A stretch of 64,000 nucleotides of DNA from an uncultured Dehalococcoidales bacterium (GTDB lineage Bacteria; Chloroflexota; Dehalococcoidia; Dehalococcoidales; UBA5760). The DNA lies in NCBI GenBank assembly GCA_964472625.1, contig CAYYLM010000006.1:1315-65314 (forward strand). The letters run 5' to 3'. Positions 1 through 14,595 of the stretch are shown here, one piece after another. Both the position numbers and the translations under genes were made by a program. Position 1 is the first letter of the stretch. Each line of letters starts with the position of its first letter. The notes beneath the pieces are model-generated. The model searched no databases. It had not been told where the DNA came from and was given only the letters and a program-made list of their open reading frames with translations.

Positions 1-3
1 GAC

Positions 4-531
4 ATGAAGAACCTTCGACTCGATAGGCCACTTGCATTCATTGATGTCGAAACAACTGGACTCAACCCTTATTCAGACAGGATAGTAGAGTTATCGATTC
101 TTAAGATTTATCCAGATGGTAGCGAAGACTACAAGAGCCACAGGATTAATCCACAGATACCCATCCCAGCTGAGGCAACGGCTATCCATGGCATAACCGA
201 TGCCGATGTCGCAGAGGAACCATACTTCTACCAGTACGCAAGGAGCATTCGAGATTTCCTTGAAGACTGTGACATTGCGGGATTCAATGTCATTAAGTTT
301 GATTTACCCTGCCTTGAAGCGGAATTCGCAAGAGCTAATATTGAGTTCACTCGCCGTGACCGATACTTGATTGACAGCCAAGTCATATATCATATACGCG
401 AACCTCGTACCCTTGAATCCGCTTACCAAAAATACTGCGGCAAGGAAATGGTAAACGCCCACTGCGCGGAAGCAGACGCAAAGGCAACAGCCGAGATATT
501 GGATAGCCAGCTAGAGATATATCAGGACTGA
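4..531 (+). CDS. DEDDh (DnaQ/ExoX-like) 3'-5' exonuclease, catalytic part; ends at an in-frame TGA (529-531)
   Basis: Exo motifs FIDVETTG, FNVIKFD and HCAEADA (H-x4-D). The frame stays open after the TGA. Confidence 0.85.
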   Translation: MKNLRLDRPLAFIDVETTGLNPYSDRIVELSILKIYPDGSEDYKSHRINPQIPIPAEATAIHGITDADVAEEPYFYQYARSIRDFLEDCDIAGFNVIKFDLPCLEAEFARANIEFTRRDRYLIDSQVIYHIREPRTLESAYQKYCGKEMVNAHCAEADAKATAEILDSQLEIYQD

Positions 532-606
532 CCCAGAAGTGCAGCCGGACTATGCGCTTTATGTTATCAAGTCGGGGAAAATGCTGTCGATTCAGAAGGC
601 AAATTT

Positions 607-801
607 ATGTGGTTTCAAGATGAAGCGGTGTTCAATTTCGGCAAGCATAAAGATAAATCGTTAAGAGAAATAGCTGCAGATTATCCTGACTATCTAGAAT
701 GGATGTCTCGCGGAGATTTCTCCCCAGAAATCAAAGATATAGTGACTAAGGCCTTGAAGGAAGAGTTTCCTACATCACCAGTACGTCGTCTTAGAGAGTA
801 G
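607..801 (+). CDS. ExoX-like C-terminal / DUF3820-type domain, same frame as 4-531 (frame open from 532)
   Basis: Motif FNFGKHKDKSLREI...PDYLEWM. The region 532-606 translates without stops as PRSAAGLCALCYQVGENAVDSEGKF, linker-like sequence that I recall from full-length homologs. Confidence 0.6.
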   Translation: MWFQDEAVFNFGKHKDKSLREIAADYPDYLEWMSRGDFSPEIKDIVTKALKEEFPTSPVRRLRE

Positions 802-1030
802 TCACTGACTTTATCCTGTCCCCGAAGTGGCTACACCAGCTAGGTGAAGGATCACGCTGCGAGACCTTCCGATCTTGAGTGACTTGCGCGTAATCTTAGA
901 TGACATCTTGCCCTACCATGATGACGACTCCAAACTCATCGGGCGACTACTAGATAAATAGCTTTCAAGGAGAGTTAGACTCTATACCTAATCCACTCCC
1001 AGCGACCACCCCACTTATACCTTCAACGCC

Positions 1031-1333
1031 TCAGCTCTTATAAAGGCTCTCGATAATCCTTATCAAAGACTTCTTAATCTCGGGCTGGAGCACCTTATCA
1101 GCCTTTATCGCTGGGATTATTCCTATCACAACCCCTTCCTTACCAGCCACAAGATAATCAATACTCACACCTAGTTCCTCAGCAGCTTTCACAAGGAATC
1201 CCATCGACGGCACGCGCTTACCCTGCTCAATCGCTGAAATATGCTGAGGAGTCATGCTTAACGCATTGGCCAATTCCTGCTGTGTTATCTTTAGAATTTT
1301 GCGCCTTTTTCTGATTCGTTCACCTAAGCTCAT
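1031..1333 (-). CDS. XRE-family helix-turn-helix transcriptional regulator
   Basis: MSLGERIRKRRKILKITQQELANALSMTPQHISAIEQGKRVPS is a classic HTH_3 sequence. The ORF-track start at 1453 is probably an upstream extension; the ATG at 1333 fits the family N-terminus. Confidence 0.8.
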   Translation of the reverse strand: MSLGERIRKRRKILKITQQELANALSMTPQHISAIEQGKRVPSMGFLVKAAEELGVSIDYLVAGKEGVVIGIIPAIKADKVLQPEIKKSLIRIIESLYKS

Positions 1334-1475
1334 TCTGCTATCCAATCCTCTCAGGTCTTTAGTGAAAAGACTAGCAACTGAATGATTAGGAGAGCAAATA
1401 TACATCTCATAGTTTACTTTTACGACTATTTGCGTTTTAATAATATGCGACAACCTTGAAAATCGGAGGAGAGCA

Positions 1476-1970
1476 ATGAATCAAAGAATCATTTTAGCCA
1501 CTATCCTTAGCCTATGTATTTCGGGACTGCTACTACTCAACGGGTGTTTCCTGTCCCCATCACAACCAAGTTACAGCCCACCCGCAACAACACGGGTACC
1601 AGAATCAACACCAGAACCTACTCCTACCTATCGGCATTGGGAATGGCAACCATCCCCAGGTCACATTTTAGAAGGCGGATCATGGGCCTACTTCCCCGCA
1701 GGTGGGGCATACGTAGAAGCGGGACATACCTTGACGCTACATTGGTCGTCAGACAGCCCTTTGGATGGCTTCATCCTTACCGCAAATCAATTCGACAACA
1801 TGGACAAGCATCTTGGAGTGGTTTCGGCATATCTCGCTAAGGGTTCCGGCACTAACAAGACCATAGTCGCACATGTCCAGAACAGCGACAAGTATTATGC
1901 CGTTGTGCGTAATTTGTCTGTTCTCGCACCTTCAGTGAAACTTTACGAGGCGACGCTCACCGAGGAGTAA
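1476..1970 (+). CDS. Hypothetical lipoprotein
   Basis: Signal peptide with lipobox LLLLNG-C, followed by a Pro/Ser/Thr-rich linker. Confidence 0.6.
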   Translation: MNQRIILATILSLCISGLLLLNGCFLSPSQPSYSPPATTRVPESTPEPTPTYRHWEWQPSPGHILEGGSWAYFPAGGAYVEAGHTLTLHWSSDSPLDGFILTANQFDNMDKHLGVVSAYLAKGSGTNKTIVAHVQNSDKYYAVVRNLSVLAPSVKLYEATLTEE

Positions 1971-1991
1971 TCCACCGAGGGAAATATATAC

Positions 1992-2013
1992 TTCCCCCCC
2001 CCTCCTCCCCCTT
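1992..2013. repeat. Pyrimidine tract C9-T-CC-T-C5 (C9 homopolymer at 1994-2002)
   Basis: Read directly: cttccccccccctcctccccctt. Confidence 0.9.
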
Positions 2014-2267
2014 GACCATGCGGTTTCCAGCCCTAGAAAACCATCATACGCTTTCTGGGATATATTGCTGATGTCCCTAGTGCCATGAACTTCCTTGTAA
2101 TGGGCTAACAATCTAAGAAGATCCTAGAGATAGCCATCCATTGATCGAACGCCTTTATTCATGAGCATATAAATCATATGCGCATTGGTGCAGCACGTGA
2201 GGCGGTTTTGATACAATGCTCTAAACTCTGGATATTTGAATTTAGACTTAGAAAGAGGCTGAAAATG

Positions 2268-2299
2268 AGAGAAACTATTTAGTTTCTCTTATTTTTGTG
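2268..2299 (+). terminator. Rho-independent terminator-like hairpin
   Basis: 9-bp stem agagaaact/agtttctct (2268-2276 / 2281-2289), 4-nt loop attt, tail tatttttgtg. Confidence 0.5.
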
Positions 2300-2360
2300 C
2301 GTGGTCAAAAACCTTTGCTTTTTGTTAGCGCGATGTTAGCATGAAAATAAGGAAAATTGA

Positions 2361-2747
2361 ATGTTTGAGCATTTGCCGGAAGTAACACAAGATAACCTCA
2401 ATGTGCTGACTGATAAGGAAATAAGCTGTTTTGCCAGTTTACTTAAGAGATGCATTGAGGAGACCGATACTCCTGACAGAGCAATAGACTGCATGTGCCA
2501 GGAGATTAGTAATTCAAATCCGTATCTAGTTAACGCAGTGAGGGCTGCTGCCTATTCAGTGGCGAGTGAGCTAGAGGGGGATGTCCCAGGAGGTTGTGAA
2601 TGGAGAGCTGGCCTAGCTACTGTCCCCGGCGTGTTGGCTATCTTACGTTTAATAGACCGGGCCCTGGAGGCCAGGGTTATCATGTCAAAACTGGGGTTCT
2701 ATAGTCCAAATAGTTCAAGTGGCAGCGATAACCCACAGATGCAATAG
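2361..2747 (+). CDS. Hypothetical protein (element cargo)
   Basis: 128-aa ORF directly upstream of the recombinase gene and overlapping it. No recognisable motif. Confidence 0.45.
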   Translation: MFEHLPEVTQDNLNVLTDKEISCFASLLKRCIEETDTPDRAIDCMCQEISNSNPYLVNAVRAAAYSVASELEGDVPGGCEWRAGLATVPGVLAILRLIDRALEARVIMSKLGFYSPNSSSGSDNPQMQ

Positions 2748-4338
2748 TCAATGTTTGGTGTCTTTGTACAGGAGTAGGGTAACGGTGGAAAGGGCTTTGG
2801 TAGTATTGCGGGAAAGTCTTGATATCCTGGCTGAGGGATACGGGTTTGATATACAGCTAGATGAGGTAAAGCGGTTCTTTCAAGAGCACGATTTAGTTGC
2901 TGACAGGATAGTAAAGCTAATTGAAAATTCTACAACCTGGGATAGAGACGAATTCGAGTCTCTGGTATTCGATGCCATAGATCGACGGTTCGAGGTTCCT
3001 TGGTTGGTATTTCCGAGGGTGGACAGATTTGCGAGGAAAGCGGATGCCGCTGCGTATTATCTTGGTTTATTGAGGAAGGCTGGCCTGAAATTGGGTTTTG
3101 CCAGGGAAAACCTTGTGGTAACTAACGAGACGGGCTCCATGGAATTTCTAATGCTTAGCTTTCAAACGGCCAAGGCTGATGAAGATGCAAAGACTATCAA
3201 GGCTAATACAATGGGTGGCCGACTTAAGCGGGCTAAAGAGCGTGGCAGACTTCCCAACGGTGGGCACAGGTGGTGTTTTGACTACGACAAGGCTACGGGG
3301 AAAGCTGTCATTAACTCGGAAAAAGCCAATCATGTCAGAAACTGGGCTAGATGGCTTATAGAAGAGGGGGTAAGTCTAGGGGAGTGCTGCCGACGTATGG
3401 AAGCCCTAGGTGTCCCAGCACCTAAAGGGGGCTTAAGATGGCGCCCTGGCACTCTTACGCGAATATTGAAGGATAGAGCTCTTATTGGCAAGTTCTACGC
3501 TTACAAAGAGAAGATGGTTGGGGAGGAAGGGCGCGTAAAGAAACGTCGGGAATGTCAGAAGGAACCGCTTCTAGTTTATGAAGATGATAACACCGTTCTG
3601 GAATCTGTAATATTTGAAGACGTTCAAAGACGGTTACGAAAGAATATTGAATTATCCCAGCGTAATGTAAGATTCGATTACACACCTACTCGCGGTTTCA
3701 TCTTCTGTGGGACCTGCGGACGTAGGCTAACGGGGGTGGCATTTCGTGGCGTACCTTATTTCCGATGTCCAGTATGCAGGAAGCCGAGCATTAAGGCAGA
3801 GGCTATTTGGGAAGCAGTGAGCGGGGAGATAAAACACATTCTCCTTGATCCGGAACTCTTCTACGAGGCATTGAGCAAATACTTGAATACCGGAATGTCA
3901 GCTGCCCAATTGGAACGTGAAATTACTCAATTAGAAACGCAATTGGCTAATCTTGATGAAGTTGATACAAAGATACTGAGGTTGTATCTGATAACCAACT
4001 ACCCGGAGAATAAACTAAGAATAGAGCACGAGCGGATAGAAAAGCACAAGGTAGTGTTATCTGATAAAGTTAGACATTTGAAGGCAGAATTAGCTGACCT
4101 CAGACGGGTAAGGCTAACCAGAGAAGTCTTGGCTGAACACTCGCGCTGGTTTCAGTCAGAGGTTGCTCACTTTACTGAACAGGCGTGGCGTGGGCTCCTT
4201 GCTCAATGGGAAGTGAAAGTCATCATTGATGGGCAGAAACAAGCTTCGCTCCAAATGCGTTCACCATCAACTAATCTAGATACTTCAATACCGTTAAACA
4301 GTGAGTTATTGTGTCACAACGATGGTAAACGATGGTAA
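2719..4338 (+). CDS. Large serine recombinase (resolvase / recombinase / zinc-ribbon architecture) with an atypical N-terminus
   Basis: VDRFARK matches the resolvase 'lDRlsR' motif. Recombinase-domain signature GRLPNGGHRWCFDYD. Zinc ribbon CGTCGRRL...FRCPVCRK, then a C-terminal coiled coil. No in-frame ATG near the 5' end (candidate GTG/TTG starts at 2719-2785). Confidence 0.8.
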   Translation: MAAITHRCNSQCLVSLYRSRVTVERALVVLRESLDILAEGYGFDIQLDEVKRFFQEHDLVADRIVKLIENSTTWDRDEFESLVFDAIDRRFEVPWLVFPRVDRFARKADAAAYYLGLLRKAGLKLGFARENLVVTNETGSMEFLMLSFQTAKADEDAKTIKANTMGGRLKRAKERGRLPNGGHRWCFDYDKATGKAVINSEKANHVRNWARWLIEEGVSLGECCRRMEALGVPAPKGGLRWRPGTLTRILKDRALIGKFYAYKEKMVGEEGRVKKRRECQKEPLLVYEDDNTVLESVIFEDVQRRLRKNIELSQRNVRFDYTPTRGFIFCGTCGRRLTGVAFRGVPYFRCPVCRKPSIKAEAIWEAVSGEIKHILLDPELFYEALSKYLNTGMSAAQLEREITQLETQLANLDEVDTKILRLYLITNYPENKLRIEHERIEKHKVVLSDKVRHLKAELADLRRVRLTREVLAEHSRWFQSEVAHFTEQAWRGLLAQWEVKVIIDGQKQASLQMRSPSTNLDTSIPLNSELLCHNDGKRW

Positions 4339-4419
4339 CCCCGGCGAGATATCGACCTCAACTTCGACAACCGCCCCTTCCAGTCCGACTATGGCGCAGC
4401 TCATTACCTTGGCTAGCAT
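4306..4419 (-). pseudogene. comM: 5' fragment of comM/yifB (Mg-chelatase-like ATPase) truncated by the element
   Basis: The minus strand reads MLAKVMSCAIVGLEGAVVEVEVDISPGLPSFTIV, then VTQ and a stop. It is preceded by SD GGAGA. Too short to appear in the ORF track. Confidence 0.75.
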
Positions 4420-4478
4420 ATTTCTCCATAGGTAATACCACAGGTGTTAGTTATCGGTCAACCGTACCTGTGGTGATA

Positions 4479-9408: not shown

Positions 9409-10428
9409 TTACTTTCGGCGGCGCCACTTTGCTATCGCCTCCGGGTTTACCACATGCTTGGGCAGCTCACCCCGCAGGGCGGTGAGGCAGTTCTCAAGCT
9501 GCAAGAGGGGCAACTGCCACACGACCTCCGGGTTCAGCGACGCGGCATGAGGAGAAAATACTGTCTTATAGTAGATGTCTTCACTAAGCAGGGGGTTATC
9601 CGGTTTGGGGATTTCTCCCCTAAAGACATCCAGGGCAGCACCGGAAATCTGGTTTTCCTTTAGCGCCTTCGCCAGCGCTCCTTCATCAATTAGGCTCCCC
9701 CGAGCTGTATTTACCAGATAGGCGCTGGGTTTCATCATCTTGAGCTGGGTTTCTCCGATAAGCCCTATTGTCTCCGGGGTCTCGACGGCGTGGAGGGTGA
9801 CAAAATCCGACTCCTTGAGCAGGGTCTCTAGGTCGGTGAGCGCTACGTCCAGTGTCCGGGCTCTTTCCGGGGGCACATAAGGGTCATAAGCCAGGAGCTT
9901 AAGCTCGAAGGGGTGGAGAAGCTCGGCCAGCCGGGAGCCAATTCTACCTAAACCGATAATGCCCACCGTTTTGTGACGGAGCAGGGTATTGGAGACGCTG
10001 CGCCACCGTCCCTGGCGGGCGTTACAGTCGGCGAGCTTGACGTTACACGCCAAAGCTAGGATCATGCCTACCGTAAACTCAGCCACTGAGAGGTAGTGTA
10101 GTTCTAAGGGGGCGTTGGTCACCAGAATGCCGAGGTCAGTGGCGGCTTTTGTGTCAATGTCACCAACCCCGATGGCTCTCTTAGCGATAACCTTTAGTTC
10201 CTTACCTGCCTCCATGACCTGCCGGGTTATTTGGCCATCTCCGGTAGATATCATAATGGCATCCATACCCTTAACCTTCTCCACCAGTTCATCCTCGGTG
10301 TAGTGCCAGGTATCGGTAAAGAGACGACCCAGGCTTACCTCACAGCCGGCTGCCTCAAGCGTCTCAATTATGTCTTCCCGGTCAGGGTCTCTACCCGAAA
10401 GCCAGACCTTCCACTTCTTTTCTGCCAT
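9409..10428 (-). CDS. D-isomer-specific 2-hydroxyacid dehydrogenase family (PGDH / hydroxypyruvate reductase-like)
   Basis: NAD-binding motif GIIGLGRIGSRLA, plus NTARGSLID and a C-terminal His motif. Confidence 0.8.
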   Translation of the reverse strand: MAEKKWKVWLSGRDPDREDIIETLEAAGCEVSLGRLFTDTWHYTEDELVEKVKGMDAIMISTGDGQITRQVMEAGKELKVIAKRAIGVGDIDTKAATDLGILVTNAPLELHYLSVAEFTVGMILALACNVKLADCNARQGRWRSVSNTLLRHKTVGIIGLGRIGSRLAELLHPFELKLLAYDPYVPPERARTLDVALTDLETLLKESDFVTLHAVETPETIGLIGETQLKMMKPSAYLVNTARGSLIDEGALAKALKENQISGAALDVFRGEIPKPDNPLLSEDIYYKTVFSPHAASLNPEVVWQLPLLQLENCLTALRGELPKHVVNPEAIAKWRRRK

Positions 10429-11733: not shown

Positions 11734-14595
11734 ATGGAGGGAGATGTGCCACTGGATTCTATCATCGTCAGAGGGGCGCGGGAGCATAACCTCAAGAATA
11801 TAGATGTCGTGGTTCCCCGAGACAAGCTGGTGGTTATTACCGGGGTCTCCGGTTCGGGTAAGAGTTCACTGGCTTTTGATACCATTTACGCTGAGGGGCA
11901 GCGTCGCTATGTGGAATCGCTCTCCGCCTATGCGCGCCAGTTCCTAGGCCGAATGGAAAAGCCAGACGTTGATTATATTGAGGGCTTAAGTCCGGCAATT
12001 TCCATTGACCAGAAGGGACCCAGTCGGAATCCAAGGTCAACCATGGGCACCGTGACCGAGATCTATGACTACCTGAGGCTGCTGTTTGCCCGGGTGGGAC
12101 ATCCTCACTGCCCGCGGTGTGGGCGCGAGATCGCTATGCAGACCGTGCAGCAGATTGTTGACGCCGTGCAGGCTCTGCCTAGTGGTAGCCGGATCATGAT
12201 TCTGGCACCCTTGGTCAAAGACCGCAAGGGTGAGTACCAGGCGGTCTTTGACGACCTGCGTAAGGCGGGCTATGCCAGGGTGCGGGTTGACGGGCAGATC
12301 TACGACTTGGCTACTGAGTTTCAGCTGGATAAGAATAAGAAGCACTCTATTGAGGCAGTTGTTGACCGCTTGGTAATTGGGCAGAGCGGTAGCCAGGGCC
12401 GCCTCGCTGATTCCGTGGAAACGGCGCTTAAGCTGGGGGCTGGGGTGGTGCTGGTATCGATTGTTGATGGTGAGGAGTTACTCTTCTCGGAGCACTTTGC
12501 CTGCGTGCATTGTGGCATTAGCCTGGGGGAGATTGCCCCCCGGACCTTTAGCTTTAACAGCCCCCACGGTGCCTGCCCGGCCTGTAGCGGCTTGGGCTTT
12601 AAGCAGGAGCTGGACCCTAGCCTTATTATTCCCAATAAAGACCTGTCCATTGCTGAGGGAGCGATTCGTCCTTACCAGTCGGGATTCTGGTATCTTGAGC
12701 AGCTTCACGACCTGGGGAGACGCTATGGCTTTTCTCTTAATACCCCGGTACGGGATTTGACCTCGGAGCAGCTTAATCTGGTGCTCTATGGTGAGGAGGG
12801 GGAGCTGGTAAGTTACCGTCGTTTCGGTCGGGTGAGGCAGTATTTTACCGGCTACGAGGGTGTCATTCCACGGCTGGAGCGGCTCTATCGGGATACGGAA
12901 TCTGAGAATTCTCGACTGTCTCTAGAACGCTACATGGTGGCTAGGGAGTGCCCTGTCTGCCAGGGAAAGCGGCTTAAGCCAGAGTCACTGGCGGTAACCA
13001 TTGGCGGTAAGAACATTATCGAGATTAGTGCCCTGTCAGTTAGCCGGGCAGTAGAGTGGGTGGCGGCTCTCGGTGGTAGGGAGTCAATACTTAGTGAGCG
13101 TGAGCAGATGATAGCCCATCAGATCCTCAAGGAGATCGGGGCTCGGCTCGGTTTCCTCGAGGCGGTGGGCCTGGATTATCTTACCCTGGATCGTCCCTCG
13201 GCTACCCTTTCTGGTGGTGAGGCGCAGCGGATTCGTCTGGCCACCCAGATCGGTAGCGGGTTGATGGGGGTGCTTTATATCTGTGATGAGCCGACGGTGG
13301 GGCTTCATCCCGCCGATGACTTTCGCCTGATTGAGACTCTGAAACGGCTCCGGGACCTGGGCAATACGATACTGGTGGTTGAGCATGATGAGGCGATGAT
13401 GCGCGCTGCGGACCATATTATTGATATGGGACCCGGGGCGGGCGAACACGGGGGGAGGATTGTGGCTAGCGGCACCCTAACCGATATTATGGACGCGAAG
13501 GGGTCAATCACCGGTCAATACTTAAGCGGGGTAAAGCAGATTCCCCTGCCCGCTGGGCGTCGCCCTGGTTCCGGTAGGGAAATAGTAATCAAGGGGGCTC
13601 GGCAGAACAACCTCAAAAATGTAGACGTCCACATTCCCTTGGGCCGGTTCGTCTGCGTTACCGGGGTCTCAGGCAGTGGTAAGAGCACCCTTATCGATGA
13701 GGTGCTGTACCGCAACTTAGCTCGGCTACTTTATAGGTCTAGAGAGAGGGTCGGTGACTGTGACGGCATCTTTGGTGTAGAGCATATTGATAAAGTAATC
13801 AACGTTGATCAGTCGCCCATCGGGCGCACCCCACGCAGTAATCCGGCCACCTACACCGGCACCTTTACCCCGATTCGCGAGCTCTTCGCCACGGCTCCCG
13901 AGGCTAGGATGCGGGGTTATGCCCCGGGTCGTTTCTCGTTTAATGTTAAAGGCGGGCGCTGTGAAGCCTGTCGCGGTGAGGGTTTCACCCAGATTGAGAT
14001 GCAGTTCCTGCCCGATGTAACCGTTCCCTGCGAGGTGTGCCAGGGAAAACGTTATAATCGTGAGGCTCTCGAGATCAGGTTTAAGGATAGGAACATCGCT
14101 GAGGTGCTGGATATGACGGTGGAACAGGCTCTTAATTTCTTTGAGCATTTCCCCAAGGTGAGGAATAAGCTAGCGACCCTGCGTGACGTCGGCTTGGGTT
14201 ATATTCGCCTGGGGCAGCCGGCGCCGACTCTTTCCGGGGGTGAGGCACAGCGGGTGAAGCTGGCGACTGAGTTATCACGGCGGTCCACGGGAGGCACTCT
14301 TTATATCCTTGACGAACCGACCACCGGTCTTGCCTTTGATGACGTGGCGGCGCTGCTCAGGGTGCTCCAGCGTCTGGTTGACGGTGGGAATACGGTAATT
14401 GTAATCGAGCACCATCTGGACGTGATTAAGAATGCCGACTATATCATTGACCTCGGGCCGGGGGCGGGCGACCGGGGTGGCGATGTCATTGCCACCGGCA
14501 CGCCGGAGGAGATAACCCGGGAGCGCTCCTCAGCCACGGGGCAGTATCTGGGTAGGGTGCTAAGCAGAGATATGGAGTATGCCTTGAGTCGTTAA
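11734..14595 (+). CDS. uvrA: Excinuclease ABC subunit A
   Basis: [13 protein letters not shown], two ABC modules ([10 protein letters not shown] / [10 protein letters not shown]), zinc-finger CxxC pairs. Start ambiguous: TTG 11725 (ORF track), ATG 11734, or GTG 11746 with SD GGAGG at 11736-11740. Confidence 0.95.

Follow-up and report, generated by a model that had tools for sequence, protein, structure and literature searches.

A large serine recombinase element in comM of a Dehalococcoidia bacterium, probably a stranded remnant, with a recombinase reading frame that crosses its junction

Near the left end of a 64,000-nucleotide stretch of DNA from an uncultured Dehalococcoidales bacterium (assembly GCA_964472625.1, contig CAYYLM010000006.1, positions 1,315 to 65,314 of the forward strand; hereafter the window), the gene of a large serine recombinase (LSR) runs directly into the antisense strand of the first codons of comM. 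The locus therefore raises the question of whether the recombinase carried an integrative element into comM, whether this element is still bounded by two attachment (att) sites, and what becomes of a recombinase whose reading frame crosses the junction. An earlier reading of the letters alone (the sequence-only reading) had proposed that such an element split comM about 100 nt into the gene. With moderate confidence, and from sequence comparison, we conclude that the element was inserted by its own LSR at comM codon Thr32 and is now a stranded remnant.

Several contigs carry the comparison. Contig L001 (Logan run SRR14802574) represents the same locus: it agrees with the window at every base over 10.5 kb (100% identity) and reaches 10 kb further left. 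All sequence upstream of the window comes from this one sample. The NCBI metagenome-assembled genome (MAG) contig extends no more than 6.8 kb on that side, a shorter reach than the 10 kb examined here from Logan. Contig L003 (SRR14802573) is independent, with a flank 99.4% identical to the window over 1856 bp; both L001 and L003 were retrieved through exact-protein look-ups. Contig L009 (SRR14802572) is 1.9 kb long and its comM DNA is 95% identical to that of L003. L010 is a 105-kb contig from the Joint Genome Institute (JGI) that belongs to a different Chloroflexota lineage, in which the neighbouring gene is tsaD, and L083 is JGI contig Ga0209427_10186942. Relatives of the recombinase were sought in a 5.8-billion-protein search, among GTDB representatives and in IMG/VR. 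Homologs annotated YifB/ComM come from Dehalococcoidales and Dehalococcoidia MAGs, and by these homologs the host is assigned to the Dehalococcoidia (Chloroflexota).

Four features define the junction:
4306-4419, minus strand: comM 5′ fragment, a 37-codon open reading frame (ORF) reading MLAKVMSCAIVGLEGAVVEVEVDISPGLPSFTIVVTQ to a stop, placed by tblastn (34/34 identity to L003 ComM) and DNA alignment.
2785-4338, plus strand: large serine recombinase, integrated form, 517 amino acids (aa), placed by Pfam, PHROG 95, alignment with proteins P0136 and P0137, and gene call.
4300-4350, no strand: attR, with the element arm (P′) at 4300-4324, the central dinucleotide GT at 4325-4326 and the comM arm (B) at 4327-4350.
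4318-4338, no strand: tandem AACGATGGTA present twice, plus an A; a repeat search places the two copies at 4318-4337, and attB was compared across comM genes.

The minus-strand ORF starts with an ATG at 4419-4417, preceded by a Shine-Dalgarno sequence (GGAGA, 4423-4427). Over its first 34 residues it matches, with 100% identity, the start of a 351-aa protein with ChlI and Mg_chelatase Pfam domains in L003 (tblastn E=8e-15, small set searched), which lies after an SDR gene and goes on past the shared residues as GLPDAAVQEARERV… (GLPDAAVQ…). The ComM N-terminus recognised in the sequence-only reading is thus a true comM 5′ end. The comM stretch had been drawn from 4419 to 4318; its identity as comM holds, while DNA identity to intact comM stops at 4322. 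Codons 1-31 and the first two bases of Thr32 are comM-derived, and the remainder up to the stop (VTQ, then stop) is element DNA; the element also supplies the third base of Ile33 and all of Val34, whose agreement with comM is coincidental. By its exactness over 34 residues and its syntenic position, the match is not a chance one.

The fragment adjoins an SDR-AOR-PGK-GAPDH cluster at the native comM locus. Because the adjacency of SDR and comM recurs in related contigs (L003, L007, L008 and L084), the fragment is taken for the start of the resident comM rather than a stray copy. It could in principle be a duplicated piece (4318-4419) in a genome that holds an intact comM elsewhere, in which case no functional gene was interrupted; the available sequence is the window and L001, not a whole genome, and a look-up of the exact 37-aa fragment matched the same contig only. 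This idea, which the sequence-only reading had itself raised as a possible refutation, is scarcely credible: the fragment sits at its native locus after the SDR gene, complete with promoter region and Shine-Dalgarno sequence, matches four related contigs, and breaks off, to the base, where related elements have their attL and attR.

That break was resolved by comparing attR with attB in L003, attL in L009, and both attL and attR in L010. Written in the comM sense, the uninterrupted site in L003 reads …CCGGGGTTACCATCGTTT-AC-CATTGTGGGGCTACCTGATGC (attB), the window reads …CCGGGGTTACCATCGTTT-AC-CATCGTTGTGACACAATAAC (attR), and L009 reads …GCGTTACAACGATT-AC-CATTGTGGGGCTACCTGATGCC (attL). After the L009 junction comM resumes at V34/GLPD, the same comM position as the break in the window. 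Joining the two element arms gives an attP of GCGTTACAACGATT-AC-CATCGTTGTGAC, a dyad CAACGMTT-AC-MATCGTTG in which, by comparison of the arms, 15/18 positions match about the central AC. This dinucleotide is GT on the plus strand (4325-4326) and lies inside both comM Thr32 and recombinase Gly514; attB and attP have in common the sequence ATGGTAA (4322-4328). The longer junction sequences are …CCATCGTTTACCATTGTGGGGCTACC… (attB), …GCGTTACAACGATTACCATTGTGGGGC… (attL) and …GCGTTACAACGATTACCATCGTTGTGACAC… (attP), with attR being window 4290-4360. The comparison with relatives whose comM is uninterrupted, as the sequence-only reading had advised, thus yielded attB from an L003 gene that reads through codon 32. 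The attL was obtained from the relatives L009 and L010 only; for the window copy itself no attL was found in either L001 or the window.

A perfect tandem 10-mer had been taken as the junction itself. The repeat is real, with AACGATGGTA present twice at 4318-4337, and it is neither a junction signature nor a duplication. The uninterrupted comM of L003 already reads TTACCATCGT TTACCATTGT (9/10), and the element arm brings CGT where comM has TGT, which makes the repeat perfect (comM codons 28-34). In other comM genes the repeat is present at 8/10 (L008) or absent (L004 and L010). Serine recombinases make no target duplication. A target-site duplication or junction hallmark was therefore rejected, and on this comparison the 10-mer is a lineage-specific native near-repeat plus three bases of the attP arm, a by-product and not a mechanism.

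In the 5.8-billion-protein search the recombinase matched only three other proteins: P0136 (66% identity), P0137 (34%) and P0138, a 409-aa partial sequence covering 29% of the query. No relatives were found among GTDB representatives and in IMG/VR with either the single protein or a three-sequence profile. P0136 lies on L010, where its 3′ end overlaps the first 34 comM codons (L010 11638→11537) at the same comM codon as in the window, and comM picks up again at ~907 and has an internal deletion further on. Both junctions are present there, as CCCGTATTT-AC-AATCGTTGAAAGG and TGTGTTACAACGCTT-AC-CATCGTTGGATTACC, and give an attP of CAACGCTT-AC-AATCGTTG. The proposal to join the two comM halves in silico and measure the element could be carried out on this sister copy: the two halves fit together in frame as …FTIVGLPN…, and the element is 10,629 bp long. 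P0137 adjoins a peptidase gene, not comM. Since recombinases with 66% identity share the same comM codon in two lineages, one with both ends visible, LSR-mediated insertion is, by sequence comparison, established as the origin of the window junction. The claim of a serine-recombinase element inserted in comM is thereby borne out, at ~95 nt into the gene, by L010 at the same codon with both junctions and by the matching attL of L009.

A P-arm pattern with 25 specified bases found one match in JGI metagenomes, on L083, which lies outside comM and lacks a recombinase ORF upstream. There, an 83-bp P-arm/tail block (L083 1084-1166) is 94% identical to L009 and is joined at the same GT to non-comM intergenic DNA by a zinc-ribbon gene, with stop codons upstream. 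The block may be the product of a secondary-site insertion or of a rearrangement; its junction with non-comM DNA therefore indicates that secondary events occur in this family. A shorter, 16-nt P-arm pattern gave 65 matches in IMG/VR, all of which were chance similarities without extension.

The recombinase itself has the features of its family. Its start is GTG 2785, as given by the Logan gene call and by homologs that begin MTEKTLVILRES and MEKARRILRES, so that the ORF proposed earlier (2719-4338) stands as to its end and its passage across the junction, and has a shorter 517-aa product. The stop codon (TAA 4336-4338) lies, as had been claimed, inside comM-derived DNA, 12 nt beyond the crossover, and the final three codons (KRW) are read with it from antisense comM DNA. 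The resolvase-type catalytic domain (Resolvase, PF00239, E=1e-9) and the Recombinase domain (PF07508, E=9e-10) both score above cutoff. Zn_ribbon_recom (PF13408) scores 22.2 bits, slightly below its 25.3 cutoff; the CxxC…CxxC pair is present (C311/C314, C328/C331) and is followed by a heptad-rich segment, in keeping with a zinc ribbon and coiled coil. PHROG 95 integrase matches residues 1-486 (E=1.6e-48). The motifs LRES11, which holds the nucleophile, and VDRFAR are intact and invariant among three clade members, and by these motifs the recombinase is catalytically intact.

What, then, happens to the protein at the crossover? When the L010 element is joined by its own ends, the ORF continues …SPFNDC-KRCNTIVSIPFQVAITI-stop to 532 aa, and in the integrated gene 29 unconserved antisense-comM codons stand in this place (544 aa). 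When the window recombinase is joined to the L009 arm, it reads …LLCHNDG-NRCNAKVAIPFEVTVSLVTA-stop, a 534-aa excised form that ends …HNDGNRCNAKVAIPFEVTVSLVTA, compared with …HNDGKRW-stop (517 aa) in the integrated form. The expectation that the recombinase C-terminus differs between integrated and excised forms is thus upheld. The attP of L010 lies inside the recombinase ORF, and that of the window element would lie there too. The circular form would in both cases encode a 532-534-aa protein with the conserved tail xRCNxxVxIPFxV, a product read directly from the L010 ends and, for the window, predicted with the L009 arm. Integration would shift the 17-20 tail codons to the far end of the element, where antisense-comM codons would take their place at the recombinase gene (KRW and stop here, 29 aa in L010).

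The two tails share 9/17 residues in frame, compared with 5-8 in the other five frames, and 11/20 of their nucleotide differences fall at third codon positions (p=0.04). With L083 added the count is 13/22 (p=0.012), and both differences between L009 and L083 within tail codons are synonymous. The symmetry of attP fades more than ~18 bp from the centre and the conserved IPFxV codons lie 25-39 bp out; because these codons are beyond the symmetry, site recognition alone does not explain their conservation. Three points weigh on the other side: only two independent lineages enter the argument, the window recombinase is paired with a tail from another sample and a slightly different host (L009), and part of the conservation overlaps the DNA-binding arm of attP. 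On balance we lean towards a real, selected C-terminal tail. It is a much less secure step, and a rather unlikely one, that the last 17-20 codons exist only in the circular form and that full-length (~533 aa) and integrated proteins would differ in activity or stability. If true, this would be a serine integrase that senses its own integration state through a built-in switch independent of a recombination directionality factor (RDF), comparable among LSRs to Mx8 IntP/IntX or to integration-dependent immunity. In L003, where an unrelated recombinase (23% identity) has its crossover at comM codon 346, the recombinase ORF likewise stops only two to three codons beyond that point. Compact elements of this sort may often have ORFs that run on over the junction, an arrangement perhaps widespread and overlooked.

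Is the element in the window still intact? An intact copy would show a left junction with the arm AATCGTTGTAAC… followed by GTGGGGCTACCTGATGC (comM codon 34 onward), and the missing parts would be marked by GLPDAAVQEARERV (comM codon 35 onward) and AATCGTTGTAACGCAAAAGTAGCGATTCC. The sequence-only reading had looked to the left for the rest of comM and had counted its absence as a refutation. Searches by tblastn and blastn found no comM remainder in the 10 kb upstream (L001) or across the 64 kb of the window; no inverted element arm, P-arm DNA or tail peptide (six frames) was found in the window and L001. While comM halves flank the L010 element and rejoin across it, those of the window copy do not, and a reversible gene-interrupting element with both att sites, an RDF and precise excision is not seen here, attL and the comM 3′ part being absent. 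In the available sequence this copy is not a cleanly bounded, excisable element.

A tract with GC content of 0.40-0.47, against 0.53-0.57 in the flanks, extends from L001 ~7300 to the junction at 14317 and holds genes for a VOC/glyoxalase protein, a 169-aa DNA methyltransferase fragment and an HNH endonuclease, followed by the genes of the window. Left of this tract lie PrpD, citryl-CoA lyase/synthetase and a flavoprotein, with host-like GC. The native downstream neighbours of comM in the same 90% ComM cluster (L084, L004-L006) are an 85-aa ORF, rplL and rplJ, and all three are absent from the window and L001. Synteny around PrpD was compared in 80 GTDB loci; at ≤77% identity these relatives are too remote to locate the left boundary, and none has the VOC protein, methyltransferase fragment, HNH gene or comM nearby. 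Two observations concern the genes of the tract. The 169-aa ORF (L001 8779-9288, ~0.7-1.2 kb left of the window) has a DPPY motif, and its similarity to ~800-aa phage DNA methyltransferase profiles is confined to their middle; the two-domain VOC/glyoxalase protein beside it is absent next to PrpD in 80 related genomes.

A complete element of more than 21 kb would take in PrpD, citryl-CoA lyase/synthetase and a fumarate-reductase-like protein as cargo and place attL and the comM remainder past the contig end. The sequence does stop at L001 position 1 (contig position 1563), and LSR elements can be large. We nevertheless consider such an island highly improbable, and the least likely of the explanations for the missing left end: the genes in question belong to core carbon metabolism, their GC (0.53-0.54) is host-like, a clear step in GC falls at L001 ~7300, and the sister element is 10.6 kb.

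We favour instead a model in which window 1-4326 and ~2.6 kb beyond the window start are the right-hand part of an integrative element that its own LSR placed at Thr32 of comM. A deletion or rearrangement would then have separated this copy from its left att arm, its tail codons and comM codons 33-508, leaving a remnant that could no longer excise and a comM, the helicase needed for natural transformation, that would stay inactivated. Remnant status is proposed because the comM remainder, P arm and tail are missing, the cargo is decayed (an exonuclease with an in-frame stop and the 169-aa methyltransferase fragment) and the left flank is non-native. Against this model stand the left junction of the window copy, which was never seen; the independence of the MAG and Logan assemblies, which is not established, so that a mis-join is possible; and a fully intact recombinase ORF, which is unexpected for an old remnant.

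The intact recombinase speaks for a rival in which the genome itself has a whole element, perhaps of 7-11 kb, with the remaining part of comM and then rplL beyond it; the contig to the left of some point within L001 7360-10000 would be a metagenome mis-assembly. At least three comM alleles from closely related populations occur in the one study (L003, L009 and the window), which favours chimeric joins, and the left flank is not the native neighbour. Yet the window and the Logan contig are identical (100%) for 10.5 kb without a visible break (the assemblies may share reads), low GC persists unbroken from L001 7300 to 14317, and no repeat able to seed a mis-join was found between the loci; we regard a mis-assembly as unlikely. 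Slightly more weight, though still well short of even, goes to a chromosomal inversion or translocation, perhaps through recombinase action on attL and a secondary site, that would have moved attL, the tail codons and the comM 3′ part elsewhere. The genes rplL and rplJ are essential, so they were not simply deleted with the comM remainder, and L083 has the same 83-bp P-arm/tail block on non-comM DNA, so secondary junctions exist. No second breakpoint was observed, however, and a deletion plus an independent rearrangement would have the same outcome. The idea overlaps with the stranded remnant that we prefer, and both leave the copy immobile.

Besides the recombinase, the part of the element in the window contains:
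4-531, plus strand: N-terminal part of a DEDDh exonuclease (PF00929 RNase_T, E=6e-23; PHROG 192 DNA polymerase exonuclease subunit, E=4.5e-43).
607-801, plus strand: ExoX-like C-terminal domain (PF20600, E=1e-10), in the same frame (frame 1) as 4-531.
1031-1333, minus strand: XRE-family helix-turn-helix (HTH) regulator, 100-aa gene call in L001 (HTH_3, E=2.6e-15; PHROG transcriptional regulator/repressor families).
1476-1970, plus strand: 164-aa putative lipoprotein, with a signal peptide ending …LLLNGC and no Pfam or PHROG match.
2361-2747, plus strand: 128-aa all-helical protein directly upstream of the recombinase, with a homolog in L010 and an AlphaFold2 (AF2) model.

The exonuclease and XRE repressor named in the sequence-only reading were recovered (RNase_T and HTH_3), the former split by a stop codon; its lipoprotein has a signal peptide with a cysteine and no family match. 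The in-frame TGA (529-531) parts the RNase_T domain from the ExoX-like domain, and the exonuclease is probably a pseudogene, with the TGA a nonsense mutation in a decaying cargo gene. The mechanical ORF of the XRE regulator reaches 1453 (140 aa, TTG start); the gene call and HTH domain favour 100 aa from 1333. The 128-aa protein is homologous to a 99-aa ORF in the same place upstream of the L010 recombinase (blastp E=1e-10) and has ten further homologs (54-92% identity), mostly on short contigs. It and the recombinase are the only genes common to the window and L010 elements; the other ORFs of the L010 element had no convincing Pfam or PHROG match. Its AF2 model (pLDDT 76) has five helices, and Foldseek against the PDB gave no fold match (best E-value 1.3). 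From its position we would guess it to be a candidate accessory or directionality factor. Scans of the region for tRNAs, Rfam families and terminators found nothing.

Is comM an unusual target? Mg-chelatase/ATP-dependent-protease homologs (comM) are the target of 12.4% of predicted site-specific LSRs, and competence genes are enriched among LSR targets (PMC10083194, Durrant et al. 2022). The statement in the sequence-only reading that comM is an island hotspot in other phyla is therefore right in kind and understated in degree: no known target of these recombinases is commoner than comM and, because of this share, its targeting here is ordinary. What sets this case apart is its host class, the rarity of its recombinase clade, an insertion at codon 32 and the exchange of the tail. 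In natural transformation ComM acts as the branch-migration helicase (10.1101/147660). Its knock-out plausibly shields the element from removal by transformation.

Within the clade comM has been hit repeatedly and independently, at codons 32, ~134, ~223, 346 and ~451, besides deletions and stop codons, and several populations show its decay separately. In L003 (1756-4384) the codon-32 site is empty and comM is cut at codon 346 by another LSR (531 aa, 23% identity), whose ORF ends (TGA) just past the crossover and whose element carries a Y1 transposase and D5 primase. The comM of L009 is cut again near codon 134, and that of L007 ends at 451. L008 comM (9578-10250) has premature stops at codons 21 and ~136 and ends near ~223, L084 comM (2918-3721) is without its first ~241 codons, and L010 comM (599-943) has an internal deletion of residues ~75-416. 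Many ComM homologs stop near residue 350, including 10 of the 120 best Dehalococcoidales homologs, which end at 348-360 aa (P0007, P0019, P0022, P0041, P0045, P0053, P0076, P0090, P0093 and P0096); this pattern suggests a hotspot for insertion at codon 346 that is widespread across the order.

Two further observations concern disrupted comM genes. The C-terminal fragments P0126, P0130 and P0131 begin MPQGSLTFPANFML… or MILGQGSL… and overlap the end of L003 comM (…GSLTFPANFML, then AKWN and stop) by ~12 codons. If these were the two ends of one element type, an overlap of 36 bp would be unexpected for a serine recombinase, and differing crossovers are more likely. In addition, a conserved 40-80-nt motif around ACTGCATTTTAGGCACAA recurs beside disrupted comM within DNA that is unrelated in other respects (L009 385-423, L083 280-359, L007 12592-12677 and L008 11102-11150); it is absent from the window and L001.

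The closest known systems are the comM/YifB LSR elements of Durrant et al. 2022, which likewise have an LSR at the element edge, an insertion in a Mg-chelatase/ComM homolog and a short dyad att site with a central dinucleotide, which for the window is a reconstruction with the L009 arm (PMC10083194). The present element differs in its Dehalococcoidia host, in a very rare recombinase clade (two full-length homologs and a 409-aa partial in 5.8 billion proteins) and in a copy without a second junction. Other Dehalococcoidales comM genes have their common site near codon 346, whereas here it is codon 32. The LSR elements of Listeria A118/φ10403S in comK, B. subtilis skin (SpoIVCA) in sigK and SPβ (SprA/SprB) in spsM excise and restore the gene. 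For A118, the gene-interrupting element in comK is described in PMC3556126. All three share with our locus an LSR element inside a competence-related or developmental gene and a recombinase at the element end by the split gene. Unlike here, where the second att site and the comM 3′ part were not found and a switch is not supported, they keep both att sites and an RDF and excise precisely. Dehalococcoides ssrA-specific islands are site-specific islands of the same class, whose target is the tmRNA gene and not comM (PMC3146451).

The precisely mapped attB/attP pair (central AC, arms CAACGMTT) belongs to a very rare LSR clade and comes from the Dehalococcoidia, for which almost no genetic tools exist. 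Also worth keeping is an attP within the recombinase ORF together with an exchanged tail that appears conserved as protein. The SSV1-type archaeal integrases likewise have attP within the integrase ORF, and the SSV1 gene is split near its 5′ end on integration. A documented precedent is IntP/IntX of myxophage Mx8, with attP in the integrase ORF and a new 3′ end and C-terminus after integration (PMC6070905). In the searchable literature no LSR with attP inside its own ORF was found; the search returned only Mx8, a tyrosine integrase. In contrast to the tyrosine recombinases of Mx8 and SSV1, the enzyme here is a serine recombinase in which only the 17-20 C-terminal codons past the zinc ribbon and coiled coil would be exchanged.

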